This document shows positions 1 to 14,998 of a DNA stretch of 15,535 bases, piece by piece; the stretch's first letter is position 1, and each line of letters begins with the position of its first letter. Position numbers and translations under genes: made by a program. A model generated the notes under the pieces. It ran no database searches and was not told the origin of the DNA. It was given only the letters and a program-made list of their open reading frames with translations. Source of the stretch: a virus (lineage: Duplodnaviria > Heunggongvirae > Uroviricota > Caudoviricetes); IMG/VR virus record IMGVR_UViG_2634166457_000017, positions 1 to 15,535 of that record; one strand, given 5' to 3'.

Positions 1-1227
1 GTGGCAGGCACAAACAAACTGAGTGATAAAAAATTAAGATCGCTTCTCGGCGTAAAGCGGGATTCAGTAATTACCATTGCGGATGGTGAAGGATTAAGCA
101 TCAAAGTATCCATGATGGGATGCATTAGTTGGGTTTTCTCTTATCGTCTTGGTGGGCGTGGGAGCAAGTTAGAGCGCATTGTTCTTGGGCGTTACCCTGA
201 CATGTCGTTGAAAATGGCTAGGGAGAAGAGGGAACTATGCCGAAAATGGTATGCGGACGGGCTGAATCCACGACTTGAATTAGAACTTAGCGCAGAAGAA
301 AACCTTAACCCCGTAACTGTCCATGATGCCCTTGAATATTGGCTAATTCATTACGCAAGAAAAAAACGTAGTGACGAGGAACTCGTGCGGGCGCAATTAC
401 GTAAGCATATTTATCCGCGTCTTGGCCACTATCCGTTATCCCGGTGTGAAACGCGTCACTGGGTGACATGTTTTGATGAAATTAACCAGTCCAGGCCAAT
501 CACTGCCGGGCGAATGTTCCAGATTTGTAAACAGGCCTTAAGATTCTGCAAGGTTCGCCGTTATGCCTCATGTGATGCCCTGGCTTTTATGACAATCCAG
601 GATGTAGGGCAACCATCGGGGCAGCGTGATAGGGTGCTGTCAGATAGTGAGTTAGCTGATGTATGGCGGTGTACTTATAGCGATGAACAGCAATTTTATT
701 ATCTTCGTCTGCTTAAGTTGCTTGTGCTGTTTGGGGCGCGAACAATGGAAGTAAGATTATCCCGGTGGAGTGAATGGGATTTTCAGTCATGGATTTGGAC
801 GGTTCCTAAAGAACACAGCAAAACTCGTGAAAAAATAGTTCGTCCAATTCCAGAGGGCATTCGCCCATGGATTGAGGATCTAAAAAAGGAAACGGGAAAA
901 ACAGGAATTGTACTGGGTGAAGAACGTTCCCGCCAGGCTGCTTCGCTTAAAGGGCGTAGGCTATACAAAGATTTTCATCATAATGAGCCATGGACGCTTC
1001 ACGATTTGCGCAGAACATTTTCTACAGGTTTAAATAATATGGGTATTGCGCCACATATTGTAGAGCTTTTACTTGGTCATGCATTGCCGGGGGTGATGGC
1101 TATTTATAACCGTAGTCTGTACTTACCTGAGAAAATGGATGCGTTGAATAAGTGGTATGGCCGATTAGAACTTCTGGCTGGTAATCATCAAAATGTGGTG
1201 CTGTTACCTGTATCGAATAGAGGTTAA
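1..1227 (+). CDS. int: Tyrosine recombinase / phage integrase (P4-like, arm-binding N-terminus)
   Basis: 408-aa ORF; C-terminal catalytic region shows the R..HxxR..Y pattern (WTLHDLRRTFST, LLGHA, AIYNRSLY). N-terminus resembles P4-family integrase arm domain. GTG start sits at the window edge, so the true start could lie upstream. Confidence 0.85.
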   Translation: MAGTNKLSDKKLRSLLGVKRDSVITIADGEGLSIKVSMMGCISWVFSYRLGGRGSKLERIVLGRYPDMSLKMAREKRELCRKWYADGLNPRLELELSAEENLNPVTVHDALEYWLIHYARKKRSDEELVRAQLRKHIYPRLGHYPLSRCETRHWVTCFDEINQSRPITAGRMFQICKQALRFCKVRRYASCDALAFMTIQDVGQPSGQRDRVLSDSELADVWRCTYSDEQQFYYLRLLKLLVLFGARTMEVRLSRWSEWDFQSWIWTVPKEHSKTREKIVRPIPEGIRPWIEDLKKETGKTGIVLGEERSRQAASLKGRRLYKDFHHNEPWTLHDLRRTFSTGLNNMGIAPHIVELLLGHALPGVMAIYNRSLYLPEKMDALNKWYGRLELLAGNHQNVVLLPVSNRG

Positions 1228-1318
1228 ACTGATATTACGGGCATAGGTCGGCCAACCGAAAAGCGGGAAACCCTACCCGCCTGGCTCGTAAAGTATTTAG
1301 GGCGTTGAGGGTAGCGCA

Positions 1319-2248
1319 ATGGCTAACGACATTAAAATTCCTTTTCAGTATTGCAACATTGAGCGTGCATCAAGATTGCTGGGTTGCGAGATTAGCGATC
1401 TCGTGAATTTAGGTGTTACTAAAAAAATAGCTTTATGCCTAAATTTATTTGATGCTCGCGCTGTTTTATATATGAATACTGATAGCAAGTCTGCAACTGC
1501 TTGGTTTGATACCAGAAATGCAAAATCGACCACATCACTGATGGGGAACAATATTACTGAATACTCCAGGTTTCATCTTTTCAGATACAATTATAACGAG
1601 GAGACAGATGAAACTATACACGCGCCTTTATTCGGTCAAGACTCAGAAAACGGATGCTTTAGCTCTATTGGTAGGGCTTATGGATTGTGGCGCCTTTGGA
1701 GTGGGCTGGAAGAACTACAAAATTTTGGAGAGTATTCCCTAAGTGGTTTTGAATTAACCCCGTGTCATCCAGAAACTGATAATCCTGCCGTACAACTTTT
1801 AATGGTTGGTGAAGATAGTGATTATGATGAAGAAGACGATCAAATATTAAAGAATAATATTTCTATAAATGACTTGTGGATTACCGCTCATGATATAAGG
1901 CGACTTCTTGACTGTGGTGGCGATTATTTTACGCTAACAGATAATTTTGAATCTGTAGAACCTCACAAGATGAATGGCAATGAAATTGTGCAACATTCTG
2001 CTGAAAGACATGCAAGAAATCGAGAGCAAATTTTAATGGTTGCTATGCGTTTTAAAGAAGAGCAACAAAATACTTTTAATGAGACCTGCAGAAAAAACGA
2101 TGGAACGATTAACTATTCTGCTTGGGCTCGTGAGTTGATCGCCAGACCTGATTGGTTCATTAATAGTGAATTGCCAATAAAAACAGAAACAAAAATAGCA
2201 GCAATTTTAAGTAATGCTCATAAGAGGCCGAGTGAAAGGTCGCAGTAA
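1319..2248 (+). CDS. Hypothetical protein, AT-rich accessory gene of unknown function
   Basis: 309-aa ORF with GAGGGT Shine-Dalgarno 6 nt upstream of ATG; visibly more AT-rich than flanking genes; no recognisable catalytic motif (no P-loop, no HNH, no DEAD); possible helix-turn-helix-like N-terminus (ERASRLLGCEISDLVNLGVTKK), acidic cluster DSDYDEEDD. Confidence 0.6.
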   Translation: MANDIKIPFQYCNIERASRLLGCEISDLVNLGVTKKIALCLNLFDARAVLYMNTDSKSATAWFDTRNAKSTTSLMGNNITEYSRFHLFRYNYNEETDETIHAPLFGQDSENGCFSSIGRAYGLWRLWSGLEELQNFGEYSLSGFELTPCHPETDNPAVQLLMVGEDSDYDEEDDQILKNNISINDLWITAHDIRRLLDCGGDYFTLTDNFESVEPHKMNGNEIVQHSAERHARNREQILMVAMRFKEEQQNTFNETCRKNDGTINYSAWARELIARPDWFINSELPIKTETKIAAILSNAHKRPSERSQ

Positions 2249-2267
2249 GCCTTACTCATATACTCCT

Positions 2268-2306
2268 AAGCATACTGATATATTTATAAGCATTATCAGT
2301 ATGTTT
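2268..2306 (+). terminator. Possible intrinsic terminator after accessory ORF
   Basis: Perfect 10-bp inverted repeat CATACTGATA (2271-2280) / TATCAGTATG (2294-2303) followed by TTT; loop is long (13 nt), so weak call. Confidence 0.3.
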
Positions 2307-2385
2307 CTATGATTACTACTGTGTTTTAATCCAGTATTAAAGATTGCAAAATAGCCTCCGCAATCATAGATACAGTGGAGGCAAT

Positions 2386-2670
2386 ATGACAAAAACCACA
2401 TTCATTCCCCCAACTCCAGAACAACGCCGGGCGCTTCTTGAAGAATACGGTTTTGAATTTGATCGCCGTATCCGTGAAAAGGAATGCCAGGAAATCACCA
2501 GTCTGTCGCGCTCAACTCGCTTCAAAATGGAAAATGAAGGGCGTTTCCCGCCTCGTTGTCATTTCGGGCGCAATAGCTGTGCGTGGCTTCTCTCTGATGT
2601 GCTTTGGTGGGTTCGTAACCCACCTGCTGTAGATAAAGTCAATAATCCGTACGGTAAGAAAGCTGCATAA
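2386..2670 (+). CDS. alpA: AlpA-family transcriptional regulator / excisionase-like DNA-binding protein
   Basis: Translation contains ITSLSRSTRFKMENEGRFP...WLLSDVLWWV, matching the AlpA winged-helix signature. Start placed at ATG 2386 (GGAGG 4 nt upstream) rather than the ORF-track start at 2344. Confidence 0.75.
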   Translation: MTKTTFIPPTPEQRRALLEEYGFEFDRRIREKECQEITSLSRSTRFKMENEGRFPPRCHFGRNSCAWLLSDVLWWVRNPPAVDKVNNPYGKKAA

Positions 2671-2850
2671 GGGGGGAGTTATGACACATAAAACAAAGGC
2701 GACCGGGGGCGGTCGCCAATGGGAAAACACTAAACATAAGCCCGAACATCATAGCGGTTTGCTGACTGGTGGGCAATCTGTCAGGTTTGCACCAATGACT
2801 CCAGGTTTAACCGAGGGTCATTATGGTGAATATGCTGACTTGCTGGTGGG

Positions 2851-3048
2851 CTATTCCTGCTCTTTAACATCGCCATTCTGCGATGTTTTCCAGGTATGCG
2901 ATCCCATTTTTGTGCGCCTGTACTCTTTAAGGAACTTCTCAAGGACAAACGCACATGGCGCAAATCTTTCCTGTTCTTGTTCGCTTACCGCATTTTTGCG
3001 TTGTTTTTTCCTGGATGAAGATAATTTCTTTAATGATTTGTCAGTCAT
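2851..3048 (-). CDS. Small basic hypothetical protein (uncertain)
   Basis: 65-aa minus-strand ORF in the same frame as the downstream RHH gene; weak SD; lysine/arginine-rich N-terminus. Could be a shadow ORF. Confidence 0.25.
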   Translation of the reverse strand: MTDKSLKKLSSSRKKQRKNAVSEQEQERFAPCAFVLEKFLKEYRRTKMGSHTWKTSQNGDVKEQE

Positions 3049-3300
3049 CGTAGATACCTGTAACCCTGTGCGCCACAGTTCACCGCACCACGGCGCTGGT
3101 GATGGTTACTCCTGCTCTTTGGCCTTGCGGCGCTTTAGTTCTGCTGGAGCTAATCAATCATTGTATATTAGACGTGGGATCTTTTTTTCATCGCTCCTGC
3201 ATATACGCTCATTACTGACGTGTTCATTGCTGATGCAATTTCCTAGGAGGAAAACATATAAAAACAGGGAGCCAAACCAGTATATTTTTTGCTGCATGAG

Positions 3301-3486
3301 TTATTCCTTATCAGCCTCTTTGTTTTTTTTACGCTGGCGGCGTTTGATTTCGCCGCGCATGGCAGTAACGATAAATTGCGCGTCTGTTTCGTTTTCTTCT
3401 TTTACCAAATTCATTTCGCTTAAAACTTCTAGAGGTACTCTAGCTGTTTTTTGTTGTGACTTGTTGTTGGTTGTACCTGTTGGCAT
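3301..3486 (-). CDS. Ribbon-helix-helix (Arc/MetJ-like) transcriptional repressor
   Basis: 61-aa ORF with strong SD (TAAGGAG, 7-nt spacer); segment RVPLEVLSEMNLVKEENETDAQFIVTAMRGEIKRR follows the beta-strand/helix/helix pattern of Arc repressor (EVL..EEN..); divergent from the early operon and adjacent to a palindromic operator. Confidence 0.6.
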   Translation of the reverse strand: MPTGTTNNKSQQKTARVPLEVLSEMNLVKEENETDAQFIVTAMRGEIKRRQRKKNKEADKE

Positions 3487-3551
3487 CTCTGTTCTCCTTA
3501 CTGTTAGGTGGTGTTCAGTATACGGAGAAAAAAAATAAAAAAAGACTTGAA

Positions 3552-3596
3552 GTGCAAGTCACCTAAAAGTAACCTAGATTTCAAGGTGACTTGCAC
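3552..3596. promoter_or_regulatory. Palindromic operator in divergent promoter region
   Basis: Perfect 13-bp inverted repeat GTGCAAGTCACCT (3552-3564) / AGGTGACTTGCAC (3584-3596) with 19-bp spacer, between the minus-strand RHH gene and the + strand early operon; candidate -35 TTGAAG at 3548-3553 overlaps the left half-site. Confidence 0.55.
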
Positions 3597-3674
3597 CAAA
3601 AAGCAACGCCCCGCACTGTTGGAGCAGTAACGGGGCATCTAACCACCAACGATAACGATAGTATCGAGGTAGCT

Positions 3675-3878
3675 ATGTTAAATCATACCACACACCCGCA
3701 AGGGCGGGATTCGCACAACCTGAATAAATATATCTGGCGTTTTATCGCTCTGAGCACGGCACAACCGCGCGTGATTACCATTGAGGCCACCAGCGAACAG
3801 GAAGCACGTCAGCAATCTCCTGATGGCTGCGTGATGGTATTCGCTGCCCGTATCCGTCAGGGGGGGAGCCATGCATGA
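3675..3878 (+). CDS. Small protein, possibly Icd-like host cell division inhibitor (P4 kil-region type)
   Basis: 67-aa ORF from ATG 3675 with GAGGT SD; pattern YIWRFIAL...EATSEQEARQ...FAARIRQG resembles small Icd-like proteins of P4-type elements as I recall them; position upstream of primase matches the P4 early operon layout. The ORF-track start at 3591 is TTG inside the operator and is unlikely. Confidence 0.4.
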   Translation: MLNHTTHPQGRDSHNLNKYIWRFIALSTAQPRVITIEATSEQEARQQSPDGCVMVFAARIRQGGSHA

Positions 3879-4098
3879 TGACCGTTATTTTAAATCAATG
3901 AGCCATGCAGAAAATGCACTGACTAACAGTGAATGCTTGCGGCAAATATTGCTTATCTGGCTTGATGGTTTAAGTGATGCGCCGGAAGATGAGCGTGAAT
4001 CTAATCTTGCTGGTGCGTTTATTTCATTACTCGATACGGTAATCGTCGAATTAAATAAAGCGATCGAAATTCACGATAAAAAAATAAACGCGGAATAA
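3871..4098 (+). CDS. Hypothetical small protein
   Basis: 75-aa ORF, GGGGGGAG SD immediately upstream, overlaps previous stop by 8 nt (translational coupling). Confidence 0.45.
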   Translation: MHDDRYFKSMSHAENALTNSECLRQILLIWLDGLSDAPEDERESNLAGAFISLLDTVIVELNKAIEIHDKKINAE

Positions 4099-4103
4099 AA
4101 ACC

Positions 4104-4391
4104 ATGAAACAGAAAATTTCTGGCTTTACTGCCAGCGGCCCCGCTCGTCCTGAATTTATGAACGGCGATATTTACCGCGATAAATATGGCGGTACGGTAA
4201 CGATTAAAGGCGTGGCAGAACGGCGCATCACCTACCGCCGTGAAGGTTATGAATATGACTGCGTGATGCCTGTTTATCAATTCCGGCGTGATTTTAAGCT
4301 GGTGGGCCATCGTAAAGCCGTAAATAAGAAACGTGCAGCAAGCTATATCCGCAAAATCCGTGAAATGCTGGTCGCAGGGGGTAAGAAATGA
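4104..4391 (+). CDS. Hypothetical small basic protein
   Basis: 95-aa ORF; stop overlaps primase start (ATGA), suggesting coupled translation. Confidence 0.5.
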   Translation: MKQKISGFTASGPARPEFMNGDIYRDKYGGTVTIKGVAERRITYRREGYEYDCVMPVYQFRRDFKLVGHRKAVNKKRAASYIRKIREMLVAGGKK

Positions 4392-6136
4392 AACTGGCAC
4401 CGAACGTAAAAAAACAACCACGCGGAATAAAACACAAAGACACAGAGGTAATTATTTTCGCGGGTAGTGATGCGTGGGCACATGCAAAACAGTGGCAGGA
4501 GCAGGACGGCCCCGCATCCGGCGATGATGTGCCGCCTGTGTGGCTTGGGCCAAATCAGCTTGCCGAACTGGATGCGCTGAAAATTGTTCCGGATGGGAAA
4601 AAACGCGTAAGGCTGTACCAGGCCGGAGAACTGGATTTAGTGGAGACCAAAAAGATTGGTCAGAAGCTGGCGGCGGCAGATATTCAGGATGCGAATTTTT
4701 ACCCCGAAGGGATGCACGGACAGAAATGTGAGAACTGGCGGCGCTATCTGAATGCTGAGCGTGAAAATATTGCCGCAGGGATTACCATGCCGGAACAGAA
4801 AAAATCACAACTTTCACAGATGGCAGACAGTGAACGGGCACAGCTTCTTGCTTCCCGCTTTGATGGTGTCTGCGTCCATGCAGAAAGTGAAATCGTTCAC
4901 GTATGGCGTGACGGGGTATGGTGTCCGGTCAGCACAATGGAGCTGAGCCGCGAAATGGTGGCGGTTTATTCAGAACACGGGGCCACGTTCAGCAAGCGTG
5001 CAATTAATAACGCCGTTGAAGCATTAAAAGTTATTGCCCAGCCAATGGGGGAGCCGTCCGGCGATTTGCTGCCGTTCGCCAATGGTGCGCTTGACCTGAG
5101 AACAGGAGAATTTTCCCCGCACCAGCCGGATAACTGGCTCACCACCCACAACGGCATTGAGTACACGCCGCCAGTACCAGGGGAGAATATCCGCGACAAC
5201 GCGCCAAACTTTTATAAATGGCTTGATCACGCTGCCGGAAAAGACCCACACAAGATGATGCGCATATGTGCCGCGCTCTACATGATTATGGCGAACCGGT
5301 ACGACTGGCAGATGTTCATTGAGGCCACCGGAGACGGCGGGAGCGGTAAGAGTACATTCACGCACATTGCCACACTACTTGCCGGAAAACCGAACACGGT
5401 GAGCGCCGAGATGACATCGCTTGATGATGCTGGTGGGCGTGCGCAGGTTGTCGGGAGCCGCCTTATCGTTCTGGCAGACCAGCCGAAATACACGGGCGAG
5501 GGCACGGGCATCAAGAAAATCACGGGCGGCGACCCCGTGGAGATTAACCCGAAATATGAAAAGCGATTCACGGCGGTAATCAGGGCGGTTGTGCTGGCAA
5601 CCAATAATAACCCGATGATATTCACCGAACGGGCCGGAGGCGTGTCACGTCGTCGGGTGATATTCCGGTTCGATAACATCGTAAGCGAGGCAGAAAAAGA
5701 CAGGGAGCTACCGGAAAAGATAGCGGCAGAAATCCCTGTCATTATCCGCCGCTTGCTGGCGAACTTTGCCGACCCTGAAAAGGCACGGGCTTTACTCATT
5801 GAACAGCGAGACGGTGATGAAGCACTGGCGATAAAGCAGCAGACGGATCCGGTTATTGAGTTTTGCCAGTTCCTTAACTTTCTGGAAGAAGCACGCGGCC
5901 TGATGATGGGCGGCGGCGGTGACTCTTCCAGGTACACGACCAGAAACAGCCTTTACCGCGTCTATCTGGCGTTTATGGCGTATGCCGGCAGGAACAAGCC
6001 GCTGAACGTGGCTGAGTTCAGCAAAGCTATGAAGCCAGCGGCGAAAGTTTACGGACATGAATATATAACGCGCAGGATTAAAGGGATTACGCAAACCAAC
6101 GTGACAACAACAGACGACTGCGACGCGTTTTTATAA
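4388..6136 (+). CDS. Phage/plasmid primase-helicase, P4 family (D5_N-like plus SF3 NTPase)
   Basis: 582-aa ORF; Walker A GDGGSGKST; GGGGG SD upstream; immediately followed by iteron array. No obvious TOPRIM EGYATA motif seen, so it may be helicase/initiator only. Confidence 0.85.
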   Translation: MKLAPNVKKQPRGIKHKDTEVIIFAGSDAWAHAKQWQEQDGPASGDDVPPVWLGPNQLAELDALKIVPDGKKRVRLYQAGELDLVETKKIGQKLAAADIQDANFYPEGMHGQKCENWRRYLNAERENIAAGITMPEQKKSQLSQMADSERAQLLASRFDGVCVHAESEIVHVWRDGVWCPVSTMELSREMVAVYSEHGATFSKRAINNAVEALKVIAQPMGEPSGDLLPFANGALDLRTGEFSPHQPDNWLTTHNGIEYTPPVPGENIRDNAPNFYKWLDHAAGKDPHKMMRICAALYMIMANRYDWQMFIEATGDGGSGKSTFTHIATLLAGKPNTVSAEMTSLDDAGGRAQVVGSRLIVLADQPKYTGEGTGIKKITGGDPVEINPKYEKRFTAVIRAVVLATNNNPMIFTERAGGVSRRRVIFRFDNIVSEAEKDRELPEKIAAEIPVIIRRLLANFADPEKARALLIEQRDGDEALAIKQQTDPVIEFCQFLNFLEEARGLMMGGGGDSSRYTTRNSLYRVYLAFMAYAGRNKPLNVAEFSKAMKPAAKVYGHEYITRRIKGITQTNVTTTDDCDAFL

Positions 6137-6144
6137 TTTTAGAC

Positions 6145-6380
6145 AAAAGCCCTCTACCCCTTCTACCTTAAGAAAATAATTGCATATATTTCATATGGAT
6201 AGGTTTGGTAGATGGCAGGTAGAAGGCACTTAAAAGCCCTCTACACCCTCTACCATAATTCAGGGCATTTGTGAGGGGGTGGTAGATGGCAGGTAGAGGG
6301 CCAAAAAAGCCATCTACCCCGCTGAAAGCCGCGCCATTACTGACCTGAAAGATGATTAGGTAGAGAGGTAGAGGAGGTGC
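6145..6380. repeat. Iteron array / putative origin of replication
   Basis: Eleven copies of hexamer TCTACC/GGTAGA in about 230 bp, organised as alternating-orientation 20-23 bp units (e.g. GGTAGATGGCAGGTAGAAGG at 6207-6226 and GGTAGATGGCAGGTAGAGGG at 6281-6300; AAAAGCCCTCTACCCCTTCTACC at 6145-6167 and AAAAGCCCTCTACACCCTCTACC at 6232-6254), with an AT-rich stretch 6170-6198; directly downstream of the initiator gene. Confidence 0.65.
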
Positions 6381-6422
6381 ACCACAACCCAAAACTTTTT
6401 AAACACGAGGGTAAAAATAAAA

Positions 6423-6680
6423 ATGCACACTACAGAAAAACTTAACAATCAGAAGAAACCACATAACCGCGCCATTGAGTTTACAGAGCACTTGCTGAGG
6501 GTGGCGATAAAAATCATCGACCGCAACGCGGGAGAAGGATACGCGAAAGCCCATCCCGAACTGGTAAGCGCATTCATGACAACGGCAGCGGCAAACTTTG
6601 CCACGCTGACAGAACGGGAGATTGCCGAAGCGGAACAGGTGACAACCATCAACGTTAAAACCGGAGAGCAGACAGCATGA
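6423..6680 (+). CDS. Hypothetical protein
   Basis: 85-aa ORF; stop overlaps the SSB start (ATGA). Confidence 0.5.
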   Translation: MHTTEKLNNQKKPHNRAIEFTEHLLRVAIKIIDRNAGEGYAKAHPELVSAFMTTAAANFATLTEREIAEAEQVTTINVKTGEQTA

Positions 6681-7102
6681 CGGCACAGATAGCGGCACAC
6701 GGGCGGCTGGTGGACGACCCACAGGTAAAACAGACCAGCAAGGGCACACCCATGACGCTGGCACGGATGGCGGTATCCGTACCGTGCCATAACGCAGACG
6801 ACGGACAGGCGACGCTATGGCTTGCCGTAACTGCCTTTGGTAAGCAGGCCGACGCGCTGGCAAAGCACCACAAAGGCGAACTGGTGAGCGTGGCGGGTAA
6901 CATGCAGGTAAGCCAGTGGACAGGCCAGAACGGCGAAACGCGGCAGGGCTGGCAGGTTATCGCAGACAGTATAATCAGTGCGCGAACCGTGCGACCAGGT
7001 GGCAGGAAAGGCCAACAAGGGCAGGCTACTGACGCACTGAACAGGGCAAAACAACAGACAGGCCAGCACGATGACCCATACGGGGATGAAATACCGTTTT
7101 AG
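6677..7102 (+). CDS. ssb: Single-stranded DNA-binding protein (SSB-like, short)
   Basis: 141-aa ORF; OB-fold-like core aligns by eye with E. coli SSB (LWLAVTAFGKQADALAKHHKGELVSVAGNMQVSQWTGQNGETRQGW); C-terminus DDPYGDEIPF resembles the SSB acidic tip DDDIPF. Confidence 0.7.
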   Translation: MTAQIAAHGRLVDDPQVKQTSKGTPMTLARMAVSVPCHNADDGQATLWLAVTAFGKQADALAKHHKGELVSVAGNMQVSQWTGQNGETRQGWQVIADSIISARTVRPGGRKGQQGQATDALNRAKQQTGQHDDPYGDEIPF

Positions 7103-7120
7103 CGATAACAGGGGAGATAC

Positions 7121-7369
7121 ATGCCAGTGACATTTGAAGAAGTTCAGCAACATAAAAAGTTTCATGGTTTTGATGATCTGGAAACCACGACAGCAAAAAA
7201 ATATCGCCGTCTGCTTTCTTCCGATGCGTTATTTGTTGTGGATCATCATGATTTTCTGCGCAGCTCACTGACCGGGGAAATTTTCGCAACCAACCGTGAG
7301 CAGGTGGAAGCGATGATCGAATATCTGTGGAAAATAAGACGCAGAATGCGGGATCCCGTGAAACAATAA
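7121..7369 (+). CDS. Hypothetical protein
   Basis: 82-aa ORF with GGGGAG SD; followed by an intrinsic terminator. Confidence 0.55.
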   Translation: MPVTFEEVQQHKKFHGFDDLETTTAKKYRRLLSSDALFVVDHHDFLRSSLTGEIFATNREQVEAMIEYLWKIRRRMRDPVKQ

Positions 7370-7378
7370 AGCGATAAA

Positions 7379-7407
7379 GGCCTGGATTTTTTCCAGGTCT
7401 TTTTTTC
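7379..7407 (+). terminator. Rho-independent terminator ending the replication module
   Basis: Stem CCTGGA (7381-7386) / TCCAGG (7392-7397) with 5-nt loop, followed by TCTTTTTTT. Confidence 0.6.
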
Positions 7408-7423
7408 AGGTTTTGTAAATTAT

Positions 7424-7453
7424 TTGTTCGTGGTTGTTCCAGGTTGTTCGGTG
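7424..7453. repeat. Three tandem 10-bp direct repeats upstream of the capsid operon (candidate activator binding sites)
   Basis: TTGTTCGTGG / TTGTTCCAGG / TTGTTCGGTG at 7424-7433, 7434-7443, 7444-7453, just upstream of a TTTACA (7467-7472) -35-like hexamer. Confidence 0.5.
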
Positions 7454-7643
7454 ATTCTGGCTGATGTTTACATACTGATTTTTATGTATATCTTGAAGAG
7501 TGGCACTCAGACGTGAGCCGCCACAATGCCGCCTGACCCCCTGCGCGATGCCGGGTTGATCTGCGAGATGTCGAGAGTGTCGGGCGGCGCTCCCTCCGTG
7601 TTGGTTTCACGTCCTGAATCTTAACCAATACGAGAAAACCTTC

Positions 7644-8789
7644 ATGAAGAAATTAATCGAACTCCGCCAGCAAAAAACCGCCCTGAAAAACCAGATGCGC
7701 TCCCTGCTGGAAAAAGCAGACAGTGAAAACCGCAGCCTGAACGATGACGAGGGCAAACAGTTTGATGAACTGCGTGCAAAAGCTGATTCCCTCGACACAG
7801 AAATCTCCCGTCTTGAAGCTGTTGCGGATGAAGAACGTAACCAGCCAGGTGTTTCCGTCGAAGAGAAAATCACCAAAGACGAATTGCGCTCTTATATTCT
7901 GACCGGGGAAACCCGCAACCTGTCCGGCAGTGTCCCGGCTGATGGTGGTTATACGGTTATCCCGGAACTGAACAGAGAAATTATGCGTCAGCTTTCTGAT
8001 GAATCGGTGATGCGTAAAATCTGTACCGTTAAAACCATTCACAGCAATGAATTTAAGCAACTGGTTTCTACCGGGGGGGCGGTCGTTGAACACGGCGAAG
8101 AAGGTGCGGCACGTAACCAGACGGCAACACCAAAACTGAATGAAGTCAGTATCCGCCTGTATCCGATTTACGCTTACCCGAAAACCACTCAGGAAATTAT
8201 CGATTTTTCCGAAGTCGATATTATGAGCTGGTTATCTTCTGAAATTGGCGACACTTTCGTTGATACCGAAGAAACGGATCTGGTTTCCGGTGACGGCGAG
8301 AAAAAAGCTAAAGGCTTCCTGGCTTTCCCGCGCACTGCGGACAATGACAAAACCCGTCCTTTCGGTACGCTCCAGACGAAAAAAGTTACTGGCAGTCTCA
8401 GCGCCGACATGCTGATTGACCTGAAATTTACGCTACGCAATAAGTACCGCAAAAAAGCTGTATGGGTGATGAACTCAAATACAGCCGCCTCCGCACAAAA
8501 ACTGAAAAATGCCACTGGTGATTACATCTGGCGCGATCGTTTACAGGCTGGTGATCCTGATTCTCTGCTGGGGCTTCCGGTTGAATATCTGGAATTTATG
8601 CCGGACGGTGTGATTGCAGTAGGTGACTTTAAGCGCGGTTATTTCATCGTTGACCATGAAACCGGTACGCGAACCCGTCCGGACTTCAGCGAACCCGGAT
8701 TCATTAACATCTATACCCAGAAATATCTGGGCGGTGGTGTGGTGGATTCGAACGCCATCAAGATTCTGGAAATTCAGGCTGGCAAGTAA
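7644..8789 (+). CDS. Major capsid protein, HK97 family (with N-terminal delta/scaffold-like coiled coil)
   Basis: 381-aa ORF; N-terminal charged coiled-coil segment typical of the HK97 gp5 delta domain; gene context capsid-protease-portal. Confidence 0.85.
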   Translation: MKKLIELRQQKTALKNQMRSLLEKADSENRSLNDDEGKQFDELRAKADSLDTEISRLEAVADEERNQPGVSVEEKITKDELRSYILTGETRNLSGSVPADGGYTVIPELNREIMRQLSDESVMRKICTVKTIHSNEFKQLVSTGGAVVEHGEEGAARNQTATPKLNEVSIRLYPIYAYPKTTQEIIDFSEVDIMSWLSSEIGDTFVDTEETDLVSGDGEKKAKGFLAFPRTADNDKTRPFGTLQTKKVTGSLSADMLIDLKFTLRNKYRKKAVWVMNSNTAASAQKLKNATGDYIWRDRLQAGDPDSLLGLPVEYLEFMPDGVIAVGDFKRGYFIVDHETGTRTRPDFSEPGFINIYTQKYLGGGVVDSNAIKILEIQAGK

Positions 8790-8795
8790 TGAGCA

Positions 8796-8820
8796 AAGGG
8801 GGCTTCGGCCTCCTTTTTCA
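8796..8820 (+). terminator. Intrinsic terminator/attenuator after major capsid gene
   Basis: AAGGGGGC (8796-8803), TTCG loop, GCCTCCTT (8808-8815) forming an 8-bp stem with one G-U pair, then T-run. Confidence 0.5.
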
Positions 8821-8838
8821 GCTTTATGGAGTACACCG

Positions 8839-9399
8839 ATGAAAAATACCGATTTTGAAATCCGTACATCTGAACTGACCGCCAGCGATAAAAAACTGGT
8901 GGGTTATGCCGTTCGCTGGAACAGTCTTTCAGAAATTATCTGGGATGAGTTCCGCGAACAATTCACGCCGGGGGCTTTTGCTGACTATCTGGCTGCGGGT
9001 AATGATGTGCGCTGCCTGTATGAGCATGACTGTACCCGACTGCTGGGGCGTACCAAATCCGGCACACTGGTACTGACTGAGGATAACACCGGGTTACGTT
9101 TTGAACTGACACCGCCGGATACCCAGCTTGGGAAAGATGTGCTTACGCTGGTGGAGCGAGGCGACATTACAGGAATGAGCTTTGGCTTTCGCGCATTATG
9201 TGAGGAGTGGAATATCGCGCAAAAACCGTATCTGCGTACTGTTACCGCCGCAGAACTCAGGGAAATCACGATAACGTCGATGCCTGCTTACCCCGAATCT
9301 GGTGTGGAGATTGCCCACCGTTCGTTGTTTGCACAGCACCCTGAATTACGCCCGACAGGAAATAATCGTCATCGCTGGGCTGAACTGGCGGGGTTGTGA
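8839..9399 (+). CDS. Prohead maturation protease, HK97 family (S78-like)
   Basis: 186-aa product from ATG 8839 (GGAG SD); N-terminal LVGYAVRWNSLSE...FTPGAF typical of HK97 prohead protease. The ORF-track extension to 8623 overlaps the capsid gene and is not used. Confidence 0.8.
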   Translation: MKNTDFEIRTSELTASDKKLVGYAVRWNSLSEIIWDEFREQFTPGAFADYLAAGNDVRCLYEHDCTRLLGRTKSGTLVLTEDNTGLRFELTPPDTQLGKDVLTLVERGDITGMSFGFRALCEEWNIAQKPYLRTVTAAELREITITSMPAYPESGVEIAHRSLFAQHPELRPTGNNRHRWAELAGL

Positions 9400-9400
9400 T

Positions 9401-10615
9401 ATGTGGTGGCCTTTTAGTCGTAAAAAAAGCGATCTGCGTAACCTGTCCATTGATGATTTTCTGGCGCTGTCCGGCGTACCGAATACCGGATCCGGAGAAT
9501 ATGTTTCTGCCGGGACGGCTGAATCATTGCCTGCAGTGATGAACGCGGTTTCTGTCATCGCTGAGGCGGTGGCCACGATGCCGTGTTATCTGTATCTGGT
9601 ACGTAATGACAAGGGCAGGGAGGCGCGGGAATGGCTGGACAGTCATCCGGTAGATATTCTGCTGAATGAGCAGCCTAATTCGTGCCAGACACCTTACCAG
9701 TTTAAACGCACAATGATGCGTCACTGCCTGCTGAACGGTAACGCCTATGCGGTTATTGAGTGGGGGCGGGACGGGCAGCCCAAATCACTTCATCCTTATG
9801 CACCGGGTTGTGTTGTACCGGAACGCACAGGCGCACACAAATACCGCTATACCATCACCGAACCCTATACAGGAACGGTGCGCACGTATTTACAGGAAGA
9901 AGTTTTGCATCTCCGCTATGCCTCGGATGATGGCTTTCTGGGGCGCTCCCCTGTCACGATTTGCCGTGAGGCGCTGGGGCTTGGCCTTGCTCAACAGCGC
10001 CACGGAGCCAGCATTATGAAAGATGGCATGATGGCGGCAGGGATTATCACGTCAGGCGAATGGCTGGACGGCGTGAAAGGTAAACAGGCATTAGATGCTC
10101 TGGAACGCTATAAGGGGGCGAAAAATGCCGGAAAAACGCCAATCCTTGAAGGGGGCATGGATTACAAGCAACTGGGGATGAGTAACCAGGATGCGGAATG
10201 GTTGGCCTCCCGTCGCTTCTCCATTGAAGACATTGCCCGTATGTTCAACGTGTCGCCGATTTTTCTTCAGGAATACAGCAACAGCACCTACAGCAATTTC
10301 AGTGAGGCAAGCCGCGCGTTTCTGACTATGACAATGCGTCCGTGGCTGGCGAACTTCGAACAGCAAATCAAGGCCGCTTTGCTGGTGGCTTCTCCCGTAC
10401 CTGGTACCCGTTATCTGGTTGAGTTTGATTCAGCCGATTTACTGCGCGCCACCCCTACCGAACGTTACGCCACGTATGAGAAAGGGATTAAGAACGGGAT
10501 CATGAATCCGAACGAAGCCCGTGAGCGTGAGGGAATGCCGCCGCGTGAAGGTGGCGACGAGTTCAGCCAGGCATGGAAGCAGACTGTGGAAATTAAAGGT
10601 GAAAAAGATGAGTGA
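9401..10615 (+). CDS. Portal protein, HK97 family
   Basis: 404-aa product from ATG 9401, 1 nt after protease stop; size and context fit an HK97-type portal. Confidence 0.8.
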   Translation: MWWPFSRKKSDLRNLSIDDFLALSGVPNTGSGEYVSAGTAESLPAVMNAVSVIAEAVATMPCYLYLVRNDKGREAREWLDSHPVDILLNEQPNSCQTPYQFKRTMMRHCLLNGNAYAVIEWGRDGQPKSLHPYAPGCVVPERTGAHKYRYTITEPYTGTVRTYLQEEVLHLRYASDDGFLGRSPVTICREALGLGLAQQRHGASIMKDGMMAAGIITSGEWLDGVKGKQALDALERYKGAKNAGKTPILEGGMDYKQLGMSNQDAEWLASRRFSIEDIARMFNVSPIFLQEYSNSTYSNFSEASRAFLTMTMRPWLANFEQQIKAALLVASPVPGTRYLVEFDSADLLRATPTERYATYEKGIKNGIMNPNEAREREGMPPREGGDEFSQAWKQTVEIKGEKDE

Positions 10616-10907
10616 AGACAAAATTACACCTGATGAAGTCAGGGCACATCTTCGCCTTGATGACTTTTCCGGAGAAGGCGAACTTCTGAAAATGTATACC
10701 GATGCGGCGCTGGAAGCCTGCCAGAAGCATATCGGGAAACGTTTTGAAGACGGGCTGGAATTTACCCCGGCAATACGTGTTGGTTGCCTGATGTACATCG
10801 CTTTCCTGTATGAGAACAGGGAAGCGGTTTCACCTGTGGAGCAGTCTGAACTGCCTATGGCTATTTCTGCGCTCTGGTCGGTTTATCGTGATGTGGGGGT
10901 GTACTGA
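10608..10907 (+). CDS. Head-tail connector protein (gp6-like)
   Basis: 99-aa product; N-terminal ITPDEVRAHLRLDDFSGEGELLKMYTDAA matches the conserved start of gp6-like head-tail connector proteins; AAAGGTGA SD; overlaps portal stop. Confidence 0.7.
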   Translation: MSEDKITPDEVRAHLRLDDFSGEGELLKMYTDAALEACQKHIGKRFEDGLEFTPAIRVGCLMYIAFLYENREAVSPVEQSELPMAISALWSVYRDVGVY

Positions 10908-11346
10908 TGCCGTGGCAACCATTAAGGCGATGCACTGAGCCGGGCTGTAATAAGCGCGTGAAGTCCGGCAAGTGTGAAGAGCACAGGCGGGCTGCATGGC
11001 GTGCAGAGGATGCCAGACGGGGACACCGCCGCGCGCGCGGGTATTCCCGACAGTGGGACAAATACCGCGCCCTGTACCTGAGCAAAAACCCGTTATGCGT
11101 GCGTTGTCTGGCTAAGGGGATTTATACGCCAGCTCTTGTGGTGGATCACATCATTCCCATCAATGGCGCGGTGATGTTCTCTTCTGGCCTGAGTGGAATC
11201 ACCAGGCATTGTGCCAGACGTGCCACAACCGTAAGACGACACGGGAAGATCCAGCCACGAAAGCGAACCGTAAGGCGGGCATGTATCGCGAGCAGGAAGA
11301 ACGGGCGGCACATCGTAACGACTGGATGTATGGCGATGATGACTGA
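10907..11346 (+). CDS. HNH endonuclease, disrupted by an apparent -1 frameshift near 11165-11172 (possible pseudogene or sequencing error)
   Basis: Frame of ORF 10907..11515 encodes CVRCLAKGIYTPALVVDHIIPING, then loses the motif; the frame shifted by one base encodes GDVLFWPEWNHQALCQTCHNRKTTRED and stops at 11344-11346. The D-H and N/H halves of the HNH motif are therefore in different frames. Confidence 0.7.
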
Positions 11347-11634
11347 ACAGGAGCAAAACAGGCTGATACGTGGACTGATAAGGCAGCGTGACTTATGGAA
11401 GACACAGGAGACAGGGCACAAAGCCAACAGGACAGGACGCACAGAACGCACCACAGCGAAGCGATTAACCGACCGTGACCGCGAGGTCATGGAATGTTTT
11501 CGCAATCGCTGGTGAAGCCGTCAGAGGGGGTGGGGGAGGTTTTCAGGACGAAACCGTCCCTGCCGGACACCGACCGCCTCCTCAAATTTTTGTGCACGGG
11601 AATTTTTTTGAAAATAATTGGGCGAAAAAAGAAC
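11347..11634. other. Candidate cos / terminase recognition region between HNH and terS
   Basis: Location between HNH and small terminase as in HK97-type phages; purine-rich direct repeats ACAGGAGACAGGGCACA (11404-11420) and ACAGGACAGGACGCACA (11427-11443); G-rich tract GAGGGGGTGGGGGAGG (11524-11539); small hairpin GGACG-AAAC-CGTCC (11546-11559). Confidence 0.3.
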
Positions 11635-11991
11635 ATGGCAAGACCACCAAAAGCCCCCGCTTACCTGGATGAAATCGCGGTCAGGCAGTGGAAGGAAAAA
11701 TCGCGCCAGCTTTCCGGGCGGGAAGACCTTACCCCCGCCGACTGGAGCAATCTGGAACTGTATTGCGTTAACTACTCCATATACCGCAAAGCCGTCGAAG
11801 ACCTTGCGACGCGCGGCTTCAGCATTGTTAACAGTCAGGGCAGCGAGAGCAGAAACCCCGCCCTGAGCGCAAAGGCTGACGCGGAAAGAATAATGATCAA
11901 AATGGCTTCTTTGCTGGGTTTTGACCCGGTAAGCCGCCGCAGAAATCCACCGGAAACAGAGGAAGAGGACGAGCTTGACCGCCTGGCATGA
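11635..11991 (+). CDS. terS: Terminase small subunit, P27 family
   Basis: Translation MARPPKAPAYLDE...LYCVNYSIYRKA...SRNPALSAKAD...LLGFDPVSRRR matches the P27-family TerS pattern. An alternative upstream start at ATG 11494 (with GAGG SD) cannot be excluded. Confidence 0.7.
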   Translation: MARPPKAPAYLDEIAVRQWKEKSRQLSGREDLTPADWSNLELYCVNYSIYRKAVEDLATRGFSIVNSQGSESRNPALSAKADAERIMIKMASLLGFDPVSRRRNPPETEEEDELDRLA

Positions 11992-13636
11992 GTACGCAGA
12001 AGGCGTAAAAAACGGCAAAATTACGGCCTGTAAACGACTGAAACAGGCCGTTAAACGGTATTTTTATGACCTTGAAAACCCCCTTTACACGTTCGATCCT
12101 GAGGTCGTGGAGCGGTTTATTGCCTTTTCCAGGGTGTGCCCGCACGTAAAAGGCGCAATGCGCGGTAGCCCCATTGAGCTGGAGCCGTGGCAGCAGTTCG
12201 CCTTTGCGTGCATCCTGGGCTTTAAGGTTAAGGCCACCGGACGGCGCAAATACACCAGCGCATTCATTGAAGTACCGCGAAAAAATGCCAAATCCACGGT
12301 CGCCGCTATCCTGGCTAACTGGTTTCTGGTTATGGAAAACGGGCAGCAGGATATTTACACCGCCGCCGTGAGTCGTGATCAGGCGCGGATCGTGTTTGAT
12401 GATGCGCGTCAGATGTGCCTTTTATCCCGACCGTTACGAAAGCGGGTAAATATTCAGGCACACAAGGTGATACACACGAAAACCAACAGCCTGTTAAAGC
12501 CACTGGCAGCAAAAGCGGCAACCATTGAAGGTACAAACCCGAGTCTTGCCATTGTGGATGAATATCACCTGCACCCTGACAACGGGGTTTATTCCGCGCT
12601 TGAACTGGGAATGGGGGCGCGTCCGGAGGGGTTATTATTTGCCATCACCACATCGGGGAGCAACGTTGTTTCAGCCTGTAAACAACACTACGACTATTGC
12701 TGCCAGATACTGGATGGTGAAGAGGTGAACGAATCCATGTTCGTGCTGATTTACGAGCTGGATGATGAAAGCGAGGTTGACGATCCGGCGATGTGGATAA
12801 AGGCGAATCCCAATATCGATGTTTCCGTCGATCGTGAAAAACTGGCCTCAACCATCCAGAAAGCGCGGGGTATTCCGTCGCAGTGGGTGGAAATGCTCAC
12901 CAAGCGATTCAATATCTGGTGTCAGGGGGCTACGCCGTGGATGGGTAACGGTGCATGGGCGGAGTGCGCCGGAATGTTCGCGGAGGCGGATTTATACGGG
13001 CAGGAGTGCTACGCGGGGCTGGACTTATCATCAACCAGCGATATTTCCAGCGTGTGCTATGCCTTTCCGGTCGGTAAAAAGATTATGCTGGTTTCCCGTC
13101 ACTATCTGCCGGAATTTCAGCTACAGAACCCTGCCAATAAAAACCGCGCCATCTATCGCCAGTGGGCAAAGGCGGGCTGGATACGCACAACACCGGGTGA
13201 CTGCATTGATTATGACCGTATCCGTGATGACATCATGGCGGATGCAGAGAATTTCAATATCAGGCTGGTGGGTTTCGATACATGGAACGCCACGCACCTG
13301 AGGACGCAGCTACAGGGCGCGGGATTTGAGGTGGAGCCGTTCCCGCAAACATACCTTCGTTTCAGTCCGGCGGCGAAATCGTTCGAAGTTTTTGTTAACC
13401 GGAAGGTGATTGTGCATCGTGGTGATCCGGTGCTGGCCTGGTCAATGAGTAATGTTGTGATGCAGAGTGACGCGAACGCCAATATCAAGCCGAACAAGAA
13501 AAAATCATCCAACAAGATAGACCCGAGCGTTGCGGCGCTGATGGCGTTTGGCACATTCCAGGCAGAGCATGAGGAATTTGCATTCGATATGAGCGACAGC
13601 CACAAAGAGCGGCTTGCGGCGTTTGATGGGGTATAA
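11975..13636 (+). CDS. terL: Terminase large subunit
   Basis: 553-aa ORF; Walker A-like VPRKNAKST and Walker B-like LAIVDEYH; TTG start with AGAGGA SD, overlapping the terS end. Confidence 0.9.
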   Translation: MTAWHEYAEGVKNGKITACKRLKQAVKRYFYDLENPLYTFDPEVVERFIAFSRVCPHVKGAMRGSPIELEPWQQFAFACILGFKVKATGRRKYTSAFIEVPRKNAKSTVAAILANWFLVMENGQQDIYTAAVSRDQARIVFDDARQMCLLSRPLRKRVNIQAHKVIHTKTNSLLKPLAAKAATIEGTNPSLAIVDEYHLHPDNGVYSALELGMGARPEGLLFAITTSGSNVVSACKQHYDYCCQILDGEEVNESMFVLIYELDDESEVDDPAMWIKANPNIDVSVDREKLASTIQKARGIPSQWVEMLTKRFNIWCQGATPWMGNGAWAECAGMFAEADLYGQECYAGLDLSSTSDISSVCYAFPVGKKIMLVSRHYLPEFQLQNPANKNRAIYRQWAKAGWIRTTPGDCIDYDRIRDDIMADAENFNIRLVGFDTWNATHLRTQLQGAGFEVEPFPQTYLRFSPAAKSFEVFVNRKVIVHRGDPVLAWSMSNVVMQSDANANIKPNKKKSSNKIDPSVAALMAFGTFQAEHEEFAFDMSDSHKERLAAFDGV

Positions 13637-13641
13637 CGAGA

Positions 13642-13926
13642 ATGAGCGAAACCGAACTACTAAAAATAATCCGCCGCATTACCGGAATCAGCCAGGAAGC
13701 AGGCAAACAGGAGGCCACGCAGCCGGACAGCGTGATAGCCGAAAATTACGCGCGTGTGGTGGCTGAGGTGATGCGCCGTGATGGTATTGAGCTTAACGGC
13801 GTGGATATGCGAGACATACGGATCCGAGTTCTTGAAATGCTGGCCTACAATCGCCGCGTGGAGATGTACCGGGAGAAAGAAAAAATTACTTACCACTGGA
13901 AGAAGCCGGAGCGGTTACGGCGGTAA
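13642..13926 (+). CDS. Hypothetical protein (possible head completion/adaptor function)
   Basis: 94-aa ORF immediately after terL; no recognisable motif. Confidence 0.45.
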   Translation: MSETELLKIIRRITGISQEAGKQEATQPDSVIAENYARVVAEVMRRDGIELNGVDMRDIRIRVLEMLAYNRRVEMYREKEKITYHWKKPERLRR

Positions 13927-13931
13927 CTTTG

Positions 13932-14204
13932 ATGACTGATAACGTAGATTTGCGTCATCATAAAAATCAATTGGTTACGATTACAGGCGGCGTTGTAGCC
14001 TGTTACGATTATCGTAATCCCTTTCTGTATGACAGGGTGGCAGGTATGGTGATTTCCGCCCCTCCTTTGCAAATTGACAACGTAGTGTGTGATGTCGAAT
14101 TAACTCCGTACGTTAAACGTACGGAGTTCCCGGCAGGCTTAGGTTCCGACGAAATTCGTCGACACCTCCCGGCAGGAACAGCGAGAATTACGTCGCTGAT
14201 GTAG
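13932..14204 (+). CDS. Hypothetical protein
   Basis: 90-aa product from ATG 13932 (ORF-track start 13929 is TTG); last ORF of the island; weak RBS. Confidence 0.4.
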   Translation: MTDNVDLRHHKNQLVTITGGVVACYDYRNPFLYDRVAGMVISAPPLQIDNVVCDVELTPYVKRTEFPAGLGSDEIRRHLPAGTARITSLM

Positions 14205-14998
14205 CCTACGAAATTTTCGCAGGTTAATTATCTATCTGCTTAATCGCTAACCCACTGATTTTTATGATGACTCAAATTTGAAGCATCTTTGTTTACGTTG
14301 ATATTGTGTCAAAGCCCTTTTTCGGGCTTTGGCCTAACCCGCTGATATTTTCGGAAACAGCCATCGACTGAGGCCGGAGTAACCGACTATCTTTGAGATA
14401 GTCAGATGTACGAAATTTGTGCGGGACTAAAAGTCCCGCGCAAATTCACTACATCACCGTAATGGTTATGCAGTCCACCAGCAACCATAACGATTTCCGT
14501 TACTGTTGATGTGCTTTTTTGCTGGTAAGGCGTAATCCGTTGATTGTTCCACAAACCTCAATTTGAGGAAGCCGGAAAACTCACCCGCCAGATTCTGAAT
14601 GGTGAAAATCACCGGGGATCTGAATAGGCATTTCCTCTATGGAGGTCGCACCGTTTTCGGGAGAAGGTGCGATCATGTTCGTCATACCGGTTCCGTTGAA
14701 ATGAAATAGCCCTGTATGGGCATCATCACCATGCAGGGGATCAAAATCTCTGTAGCTTCATGTTGCCGGGACCGCCAGCCTCGCCAAATTTTTGCGTTTG
14801 TGAAAAACGAAAATTATTACGTGCTTTGCCCTCTCCTGTTTCTGATGTTGTATACTCGCGGCCTTCTAATTGTGCTGGTGCTTTTTTGAGATTGTGGCGC
14901 TGTGTATCGATCCGTATATCATTCGGTGTATCACTTTTGATAAATTGCTACGTGTGAATTTGTTTTTAACTGACAAAAATCAGTGGGTTATGTGAATT

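Follow-up and report, generated by a model that had tools for sequence, protein, structure and literature searches.

A phased decamer array and a conserved leader RNA precede the capsid operon of a capsid-forming satellite: a candidate AlpA-controlled promoter

We analysed a DNA stretch of 15,535 nucleotides, here called the window, that comprises positions 1 to 15,535 of the IMG/VR virus record IMGVR_UViG_2634166457_000017 (Caudoviricetes). The gene content marks the window as a complete capsid-forming phage-inducible chromosomal island (cf-PICI) of the EcCIEDL933 type. It combines int, alpA, a primase module and its own HK97-type gene set from the capsid to the large terminase TerL in about 15 kb (Pfam matches and gene order), and the gene order agrees with that of annotated E. 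coli elements including those of O157:H7. Neither tail nor lysis genes were found in the window, on the basis of the open reading frame (ORF) list and of matching annotations, which cover the stretch from TerL to the host gene in part. Here we examined the noncoding DNA between the replication/accessory genes and the major capsid gene. It holds a terminator, a phased array of decamers, a predicted promoter and a leader which very probably is a conserved functional RNA structure (Table 1). The array is a candidate target of AlpA, the excisionase-type regulator encoded by the element.

No coding sequence is present from the stop codon of an 82-aa ORF (7369) to the capsid ATG (7644). The upstream operon ends with an 11-bp stem (7376-7386/7392-7402) that is followed by U7; its G+C core, GGCCUGGA/UCCAGGUC, occupies 7379-7386/7392-7399. 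The fold was calculated at -16.8 kcal/mol (z = -4.57) and none of 200 shuffled sequences equalled it, so the clean upstream terminator of the original prediction was confirmed. A simple terminator scan did not list this hairpin, it was revealed by the folding calculation, and Rfam gave only weak matches at this place, to the terminator parts of small RNA models. A promoter scan alone operated at chance level in the region (1 found, 1.0 expected). In an alignment of 94 distinct sequences, gTTTaCt and TAT(c)TT were separated by 16 bp and located at a constant distance, and the information content peaked at these positions; the EcCIEDL933 type has TTTACC, a spacer of 16 bp and TATTCT at the equivalent place. 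From the position of the -10 hexamer, transcription is predicted to start at about 7500-7502. The transcribed leader would then comprise about 143 nt (about 7500-7643). What had been taken for a 236-bp untranslated leader is thus noncoding as claimed, yet shorter, and the remainder is upstream promoter DNA. A sigma-54 promoter at TGGCAC-N5 was dismissed by eye because the -12 GC is missing. Equally, no convincing look-alikes of IHF, ops or boxA sites were seen, by inspection with the eye only.

The three decamers are arranged head to tail, with TTGTTC at 7424-7429, 7434-7439 and 7444-7449, i.e. in an exact 10-bp phase. TTGTTC occurs 13 times in the whole window, both strands counted, and a period-10 triple of any hexamer was encountered in 2 of 2000 dinucleotide shuffles. 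The repeats had been described as abutting a -35-like TTTACA. The repeats and the TTTACA are there, but 13 bp (7454-7466) separate the third decamer from it, or 17 bp if counted from the third hexamer. Adjoining the decamers on the upstream side is a near-invariant box (upstream box), a single copy of which is present per element. Its TTGTAA constitutes the first unit of the phased array. Accordingly, four units are located at about -87, -76, -66 and -56 from the predicted start with spacings of 11, 10 and 10 bp. The imperfect -35 and -10 elements lie downstream of this array, and the layout fits the proposed activator-dependent promoter, which we consider probable.

How general is this layout? 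The relatives were collected with a 24-mer of the leader across P1, TGGCACTCAGACGTGAGCCGCCAC (7503-7526), as an anchor, which is unbiased toward the repeats. This 24-mer was identical in more than 119 IMG/VR loci with differing flanks. A capsid-protein scan of metagenomes supplied further loci, that of genome contigs a single useful one (L003). Combined, about 90 distinct upstream sequences were available. In all of these the layout had a fixed length: the upstream box, TkTwC units, about 17 variable bp, the -35 and -10 elements and, about 7 nt past the -10, the first base of the leader hairpin P1. The central T of the TkTwC units carries about 1.8 bits at +14, +24 and +34 from the box, a conserved T.C with a periodicity of 10 bp. 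The cleanest array, three times TTGTTC, is that of the window and of the EcCIEDL933 lineage. Other lineages have TTGTTC/GTTTTC/TGTTTG or GTAC/GTTTAC/GATTAC, and in many of these other lineages the terminator of the upstream operon is located between the array and the -10. The block conserved between elements begins exactly at the upstream box, with a jump at about 7400, and continues to the end of terL. This indicated that the array is part of the packaging module. The box is common to elements whose left arms differ greatly, and in two loci (L114, L125) a recombination junction falls within the array. The TTGTTC repeats were also considered as iterons of the origin and discarded as such, because the probable origin sits elsewhere, immediately 3' of the primase gene, and the type of primase varies among elements with the same array.

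Table 1. Features of the window. Positions are those of the whole stretch; promoter, RNA folds, origin and right-end sites are predictions.
Feature	Positions	Strand	Details
Integrase gene	1-1227
int-alpA RNA	1236-1302	+	Rfam RF02996, 55.2 bits, E = 2.6e-9; directly after the integrase stop
alpA	2386-2670	+	94 aa; Pfam Phage_AlpA PF05930, E = 6.4e-12; excisionase-type helix-turn-helix
Icd-like gene, DUF4222 gene, then D5-type primase gene	4388-6136 (primase)
Replication origin, probable	6140-6380		GGTAGA(T/A/G)GGC iterons in both orientations, immediately 3' of the primase gene
Small ORFs, SSB gene, 82-aa ORF	stop of the last at 7369
Intrinsic terminator of the upstream replication/accessory operon	7376-7406	+	11-bp stem, then U7
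Upstream box	7412-7423	+	TTTGTAAATTAT; near-invariant in 92 distinct upstream sequences; single copy per element
Three head-to-tail decamers	7424-7453	+	TTGTTCGTGG / TTGTTCCAGG / TTGTTCGGTG; about -76, -66, -56 from the predicted start
Sigma-70-type promoter, predicted	7467-7494	+	-35 TTTACA 7467-7472, 16-bp spacer, -10 TATCTT 7489-7494
Leader hairpin P1	7500-7524	+	GUGGC-A-CUCA-GACG-UGAG-CC-GCCAC; minimum free energy fold; at the predicted mRNA 5' end
Leader hairpin P2	7528-7588	+	long variable stem, basal helix GCCGCCUGAC / GUCGGGCGGC; inverted repeat; minimum free energy fold
Leader 3' domain	7595-7643	+	invariant box GGUUUCACGUC (7603-7613); local hairpin over the ribosome-binding region
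Capsid/packaging operon	7644-13636	+	major capsid, prohead protease, portal, connector, HNH, TerS, TerL (Pfam)
Major capsid gene	7644-8789	+	Pfam Phage_capsid, E = 1.8e-61; ATG at 7644
TerL gene	11975-13636	+
Right-end (attR-side) region	14870-14933	+	degenerate TTGTGC (14870-14875) ... TTGTGG (14892-14897)
Host phosphoribosyltransferase gene	from 14999

Some IMG/VR families have other TTGTTC-like tandem repeats; their flanks are unrelated and they have no proteins in common with the window. In one such family (L010, L012 and others, e.g. L012 5380-5470) four GTTGTTCC(C/G) direct repeats are accompanied by an inverted copy and a terminator. A 783-aa ORF directly precedes these repeats, which could serve a P4-alpha-like primase as iterons.

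The leader had been viewed as a passive untranslated region. This has to be revised. A covariance model, R1, was built from 35 sequences of another sub-type with the window-type sequences left out. It matched the window at 7497-7646 with 64.7 bits and an E-value of about 1e-14. Among 68 distinct sequences 97.9% of the cells were paired and both-side changes were present at 16 pairs; the covariation score was 0.182 vs at most 0.053 for controls with slid partners, in an alignment which was fitted to the model and thus is biased toward structure. The hairpin P1 has compensatory changes at two pairs (L279/L288 lineage), and in the EcCIEDL933 type it reads CCAG-GACG-CUGG. In the basal helix of P2 both sides changed at 10 of 11 pairs, with 97% of the cells paired. 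P1 and an 11-nt box of the 3' domain, GGUUUCACGUC (leader box), are essentially invariant; all sequence between them is variable. A purine-rich ribosome-binding region, GAGAAAA, at about 7631-7637 is located just 5' of the ATG. At gathering thresholds Rfam recognized only the int-alpA RNA in the window, the leader is without a family, and a permissive Rfam scan of 7370-7700 yielded terminator-like noise only.

Complementarity exists between the leader box and P1, in the loop and the 3' arm of the latter (GACGUGA / UCACGUC). Across the alignment this second pairing was paired at 97.6% with one compensatory pair, and it is kept in three lineages of different sequence. In the L279/L288 lineage a U of P1 is replaced by G, and both of its partners, one in the 5' arm of P1 and one in the leader box, have changed from A to C. 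In the EcCIEDL933 lineage, the box GCGUCCUGG pairs with CCAGGACGC over 9 bp. There, the box doubles as the 5' arm of a terminator, GUCCUGG..CCAGGAC plus U7, that reaches as far as the AUG, covering AGGA. In the window type it lies within a hairpin whose 3' side extends to the ribosome-binding region. This suggests an attenuation or translation switch. In the window type, pairing of the box with the apex of P1 would compete with the inner helix of P1 and with the hairpin covering the ribosome-binding site, and in the EcCIEDL933 lineage it would compete instead with the intrinsic terminator. We put the chance that the leader switches via P1/box pairing slightly below even.

Several observations speak for a structured leader that does not switch. 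P1 and the leader box are almost invariant. Consequently, covariation for their mutual pairing is thin: it amounts to two independent compensatory events, and the pairing is broken once (L297). By about 7-11 kcal/mol, the fold with P1 and the terminator or local hairpin is favoured over the alternative. Therefore, a trigger is needed, and none was identified; copies of the P1 or box segments that could act in trans were not present in the window beyond chance. Further, the U-run is absent after the 3' hairpin of the window, and termination control is suggested by the EcCIEDL933 type only. Possibly then, P1 is a hairpin that stabilises the 5' end, P2 is an element for RNase III or for stability, and the match of P1 with the box is a static tertiary contact or reflects two inverted copies of a DNA operator. 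We hold this alternative for rather unlikely, because it does not account for the three-way change in L279/L288, in which one base of the P1 3' arm is replaced and both of its partners become C, nor for the EcCIEDL933 box being an arm of the terminator that covers AGGA, which is the classic layout of mutually exclusive helices. Going beyond a switch as such, the leader might represent a new class of cis-regulatory RNA switches of capsid-forming satellites. P1 would sense a signal, pairing with the box would open the terminator or the ribosome-binding site, and capsid expression would be gated independently of the AlpA-dependent promoter. This extended proposal is doubtful in our view. The signal for P1 would be a physical cue or a protein of the satellite or the host, for instance a ProQ/FinO-type chaperone.

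The accessory gene just 5' of the promoter varies between elements. In L001 a gene for a ProQ/FinO-family RNA chaperone (8219-8761) is located beside the 82-aa ORF, and the EcCIEDL933 type has a PerC-family gene at this position (L002 5711-5983). A ProQ/FinO protein could bear on loop-loop pairing in the leader. A scan of viral contigs for variants of the leader box retrieved a single relevant lineage among many unrelated hits. Recurrent among the latter was a motif, TTGGTTTCCCGTCTGGCCC...GGCCAG..GTGAAACC, which in many contigs (L301, L302, L305, L309 and others) directly follows a start codon on the reverse strand (CAT).

Next, which protein reads the repeats? Arrays of a similar kind were observed at two further places, near alpA and at the right end of the elements. 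In the EcCIEDL933 type the int-alpA spacer contains CCTCTTGTTCGTAGTTGTTCCACATTGTTG..., nearly identical to the capsid array of the same element; it takes the form of five to six CCTCTTGTTCGTAGTTGTTCCACATTGTTGCTCATTGTTG... decamers, located on the opposite strand, and additional GAACAA/ACACAA decamers are situated immediately before alpA. The L068/L117 lineage has a comparable array, also in the int-alpA spacer. In three members of the window's AlpA lineage (L129, L133, L144), TTGTTCAT-type decamers form an array that precedes alpA by about 250-310 bp; in L129 it consists of six decamers of the TTGTTCATCA type. TTGTTC-type arrays thus stand 5' of alpA in at least three AlpA lineages. Given an expectation of 0.077 arrays of such kind per shuffled window, arrays next to alpA in four lineages are far beyond chance. 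They were detected by a direct scan for chains of TTGTTC-like hexamers, having been missed by a profile of box and array. At the right end of four relatives (L035, L059, L196, L248), three TTGTT(T/C) decamers stand 3-15 bp from two tandem 12-mers, and in L129 TTGTTC-N14-TTGTTC precedes two CTGTATAAACA repeats. The window itself has a weak counterpart of these clear arrays: two degenerate units are followed by three tandem GTGTATCA-type 12-mers (14902-14933; GTGTATCGATCC / GTATATCATTCG / GTGTATCAC...). The right-end 12-mers probably are arm-type sites of the integrase. In the P arm of lambda attR, tandem Xis sites adjoin Int arm sites; by analogy, the decamers and 12-mers at the right end of the relatives are in the arrangement of this arm.

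Two other repeat tracts were noted. In L129, 5' of the TTGTTCATCA array in the spacer ahead of alpA, a perfect 10-bp repeat, CATTCAACAG, occurs 5.8 times and is followed by 1.9 copies of GACACGTAAT (2087-2144). The window contains a second phased array at 3451-3476 on the plus strand, TTGTTGTGAC TTGTTGTTGG TTGTAC; in shuffles the probability of at least two arrays per window was 0.003. It falls into a minus-strand ORF (3301-3486), in the stretch that codes for the N terminus, and is translated there as TGTTNNKSQQ, so that its phasing may be a coincidence of coding. The Icd-like operon is about 100 bp downstream of it.

An AlpA-family protein functions as an excisionase (PMC5148205). In Gram-negative PICIs, AlpA switches on its own gene as well as downstream PICI genes, and induction requires it (PMC6092414; 10.1101/2022.09.08.507074). 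The AlpA of the window matched, in addition to Pfam, the PHROG 'excisionase and transcriptional regulator'. Because the arrays recur at alpA and at the right end and because AlpA is an activator of the excisionase family, AlpA is the best candidate. Thus, of the two activators originally proposed, AlpA or a late regulator of a helper phage, the former is retained. We consider the chances balanced that the satellite's AlpA binds the TTGT(T/G)C decamers head to tail and that the capsid promoter is one of its targets.

A number of findings weigh against AlpA as the reader. Arrays do not follow the AlpA allele: the AlpA cluster of the window (29 loci) occurs with 21 arrays, and the perfect array of three TTGTTC occurs with four AlpA clusters. 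The AlpA of L129 is 81% identical to that of the window, yet its array differs, whereas the AlpA of the EcCIEDL933 type with only 48% identity goes with the same array. GTTTAC/GATTAC-type capsid arrays coexist with TTGTTCAT-type arrays at alpA (L133). A TTGTTC array 5' of alpA is absent in the window and its right-end units are degenerate. Relative to the gene that is regulated, the array is oriented differently at alpA than at the capsid promoter. Lastly, an nhmmer profile of box and array found no second copy in any element; this profile contained the box. The lack of tracking is compatible with AlpA only if all alleles read one degenerate core. The AlpA alleles do have common invariant residues across the Pfam-assigned AlpA domain, and this could explain it.

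Other proteins of the elements were examined as activators. Orf85 is missing from several elements with TTGTTC, and 26 of 119 elements have neither the 82-aa ORF nor the PerC-like protein; these candidates were rejected. An association of proteins with arrays by Blast clusters and a Mantel-type correlation was too noisy and confounded by linkage and spurious ORFs, and no binder was named by it.

Could a host factor bind the repeats instead? Response regulators of the OmpR/PhoB family bind head to tail to direct repeats of 10-11 bp at about -100 to -40. The geometry and the direct-repeat nature of the array fit such a regulator, and Fis may be considered for the GTAAATTATTTGTTC box. The tor boxes (CTGTTCATAT) share a TGTTCA core with the repeats, and the box resembles the Fis consensus. 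A host factor would couple capsid production to host physiology. It would agree with an array that is degenerate and independent of the AlpA allele, with a box universal across elements with very different left arms, and with the reported spontaneous formation of cf-PICI capsids without a helper. Such a factor leaves unexplained that the same decamers are present at the right end, beside arm-type-like repeats, and 5' of alpA, and that particle production for purification depends on alpA overexpression. We therefore regard a host factor as unlikely. Much less probable still is a late activator of the helper phage. There is a precedent, as late activators of the P2 Ogr type transactivate the late promoters of satellite P4. 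Yet cf-PICIs produce tail-less capsids without any helper, and the EcCIEDL933 particles for purification come from a strain overexpressing alpA (10.1101/2025.02.11.637232). Moreover, the same promoter region is present in elements of many hosts with unrelated helpers, and it is without a counterpart in phage genomes except in mis-labelled cf-PICIs.

A reading without any promoter has the box, the repeats and the conserved downstream sequence as a cohesive-end site (cos) or as cosB bound by the small terminase TerS. Small terminases often bind phased repeats, the layout has a fixed length, the region is at the left boundary of the packaging module and the cf-PICI literature examined does not assign a position to cos. 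However, in HK97-type systems with HNH, TerS and TerL the cos site is just 5' of terS, and the region is 4 kb away from terS. The gap between HNH and terS (about 11516-11634) is conserved like the flanking coding sequence and has G-rich and C-rich runs (GGGGGTGGGGGAGG ... CCGCCTCCTC), making it a candidate cos site. In addition, TerS identity does not track the array, a terminator hairpin is within the region in many relatives and the information content is highest at the -35 and -10 positions. A packaging function of the region is therefore most improbable.

Taken together, we propose a three-layered control of the capsid operon. The terminator would insulate the packaging operon from the upstream replication and accessory genes. 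AlpA, a winged-helix protein of the Xis/Cox/Apl type, would sit head to tail on the four phased units (TTGTAA and three TTGTTC) and activate the weak promoter. The same kind of array would let AlpA act in excision at the right end, regulate its own gene and switch on capsid production. The transcripts would start directly with the structured leader, which would gate expression after initiation. For this reading as a whole, insulating terminator, array-controlled weak promoter and structured gating leader, we see an even balance of chances; from sequence we infer the transcription start, AlpA binding and activation, and leader switching with its trigger.

This is reminiscent of recombination directionality factors, e.g. 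P2 Cox, 186 Apl, P4 Vis and lambda Xis with X1-X1.5-X2, small winged-helix proteins which bind head-to-tail repeats of about 10-11 bp in an att arm and at promoters. P2 Cox even activates the PLL promoter of satellite P4. Similarly, the cf-PICI arrays are found at the right end, at alpA and at the capsid promoter, and an AlpA/Vis-family protein is encoded; the window has an array of at least three head-to-tail repeats with a spacing of about 10-11 bp, as is typical for these systems. In the array variants the middle unit is the most degenerate; likewise, X1.5, the middle Xis site of lambda, is degenerate. There are differences. Unlike Cox, Apl and Vis, which mostly repress, AlpA is proposed to activate at the capsid promoter. 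The TTGTTC repeat differs from the cox box of P2, and an array at -87 to -47 of a structural-gene operon in a satellite with its own capsid is not known to have been described. AlpA-controlled induction in EcCICFT073 and EcCIEDL933 concerns the same element family as the window. In the literature examined on cf-PICIs and AlpA-controlled PICIs, AlpA binding sites, the capsid-operon promoter and its leader are not described; in the cf-PICI papers the word 'promoter' does not occur at all.

The AlpA of Pseudomonas aeruginosa has at least 142 residues and a 21Q-like fold and binds a 6-bp GGGACG between -35 and -10 (PMC9371919). With this protein and with lambdoid Q the present system shares, apart from the name, a general layout in which a promoter is followed by a leader of some 150-190 nt and, in the EcCIEDL933 type, by a terminator ahead of the late genes. 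Nevertheless, antitermination of this kind was rejected because the window AlpA is a 94-aa PF05930 protein and the repeats are far 5' of the -35 (-76 to -47). The leader resembles attenuators and riboswitch-type leaders in having a conserved 5' domain and a downstream segment that pairs either with this domain or in a terminator or ribosome-binding-site hairpin. Different from these, the conserved part is small, one hairpin and an 11-nt box, and has no Rfam match. The promoters of the OmpR/PhoB family (ompF/ompC, torCAD with its tor boxes) likewise combine several 10-bp direct repeats at about -100 to -40, a weak promoter and a TGTTC(A) core; this likeness does not account for the arrays near alpA or for those at the right end.

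The element is a mosaic. Its AlpA is, as given above, 81% identical to that of L129, which is from E. coli OW1E2, the integrase shares 46-48% identity with the integrases of the elements it was compared with, and the packaging module is 97-99% identical to that of L001-type elements. The 291 bp around the feature are 97.9% identical to E. coli 2014C-3075, where the same order of flanking genes is annotated, and 7392-7449, repeats included, matches O157:H7 genomes 5' of the capsid gene in the EcCIEDL933-type element. A 309-aa ORF (1319-2248) is located between the int-alpA RNA and alpA. A 285-aa ORF on the plus strand (2681-3538) has a low-complexity translation rich in Cys, Ser and Leu, is without a family hit and probably does not represent a gene. 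The same region holds several short ORFs on the minus strand, which in relatives are YlcI/YnfO-like. Just 5' of the Icd-like gene are direct and inverted repeats, GACTTGAAGTGCAAGTCACC ... AAGGTGACTTGCAC (3548-3600), which recall the c4-icd-ant region of P1. The Rfam C4 model gave nothing for these repeats at the gathering threshold.

The cf-PICIs are recently recognised and widespread satellites. They make their own capsids, and their tail-less particles can use tails from phages of other species. How the decision for capsid production is controlled is not described in the cf-PICI literature examined. If the reading proposed here is true, the TTGTTC decamer motif makes a single small protein, AlpA, the link between excision, its own activation and the production of capsids. 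The conserved leader RNA, which has no match in Rfam, may add a second gate, and if it does, this gate could explain capsid production without a helper. The motif and the leader would be useful for the annotation of satellites and for engineering PICI-based delivery particles.

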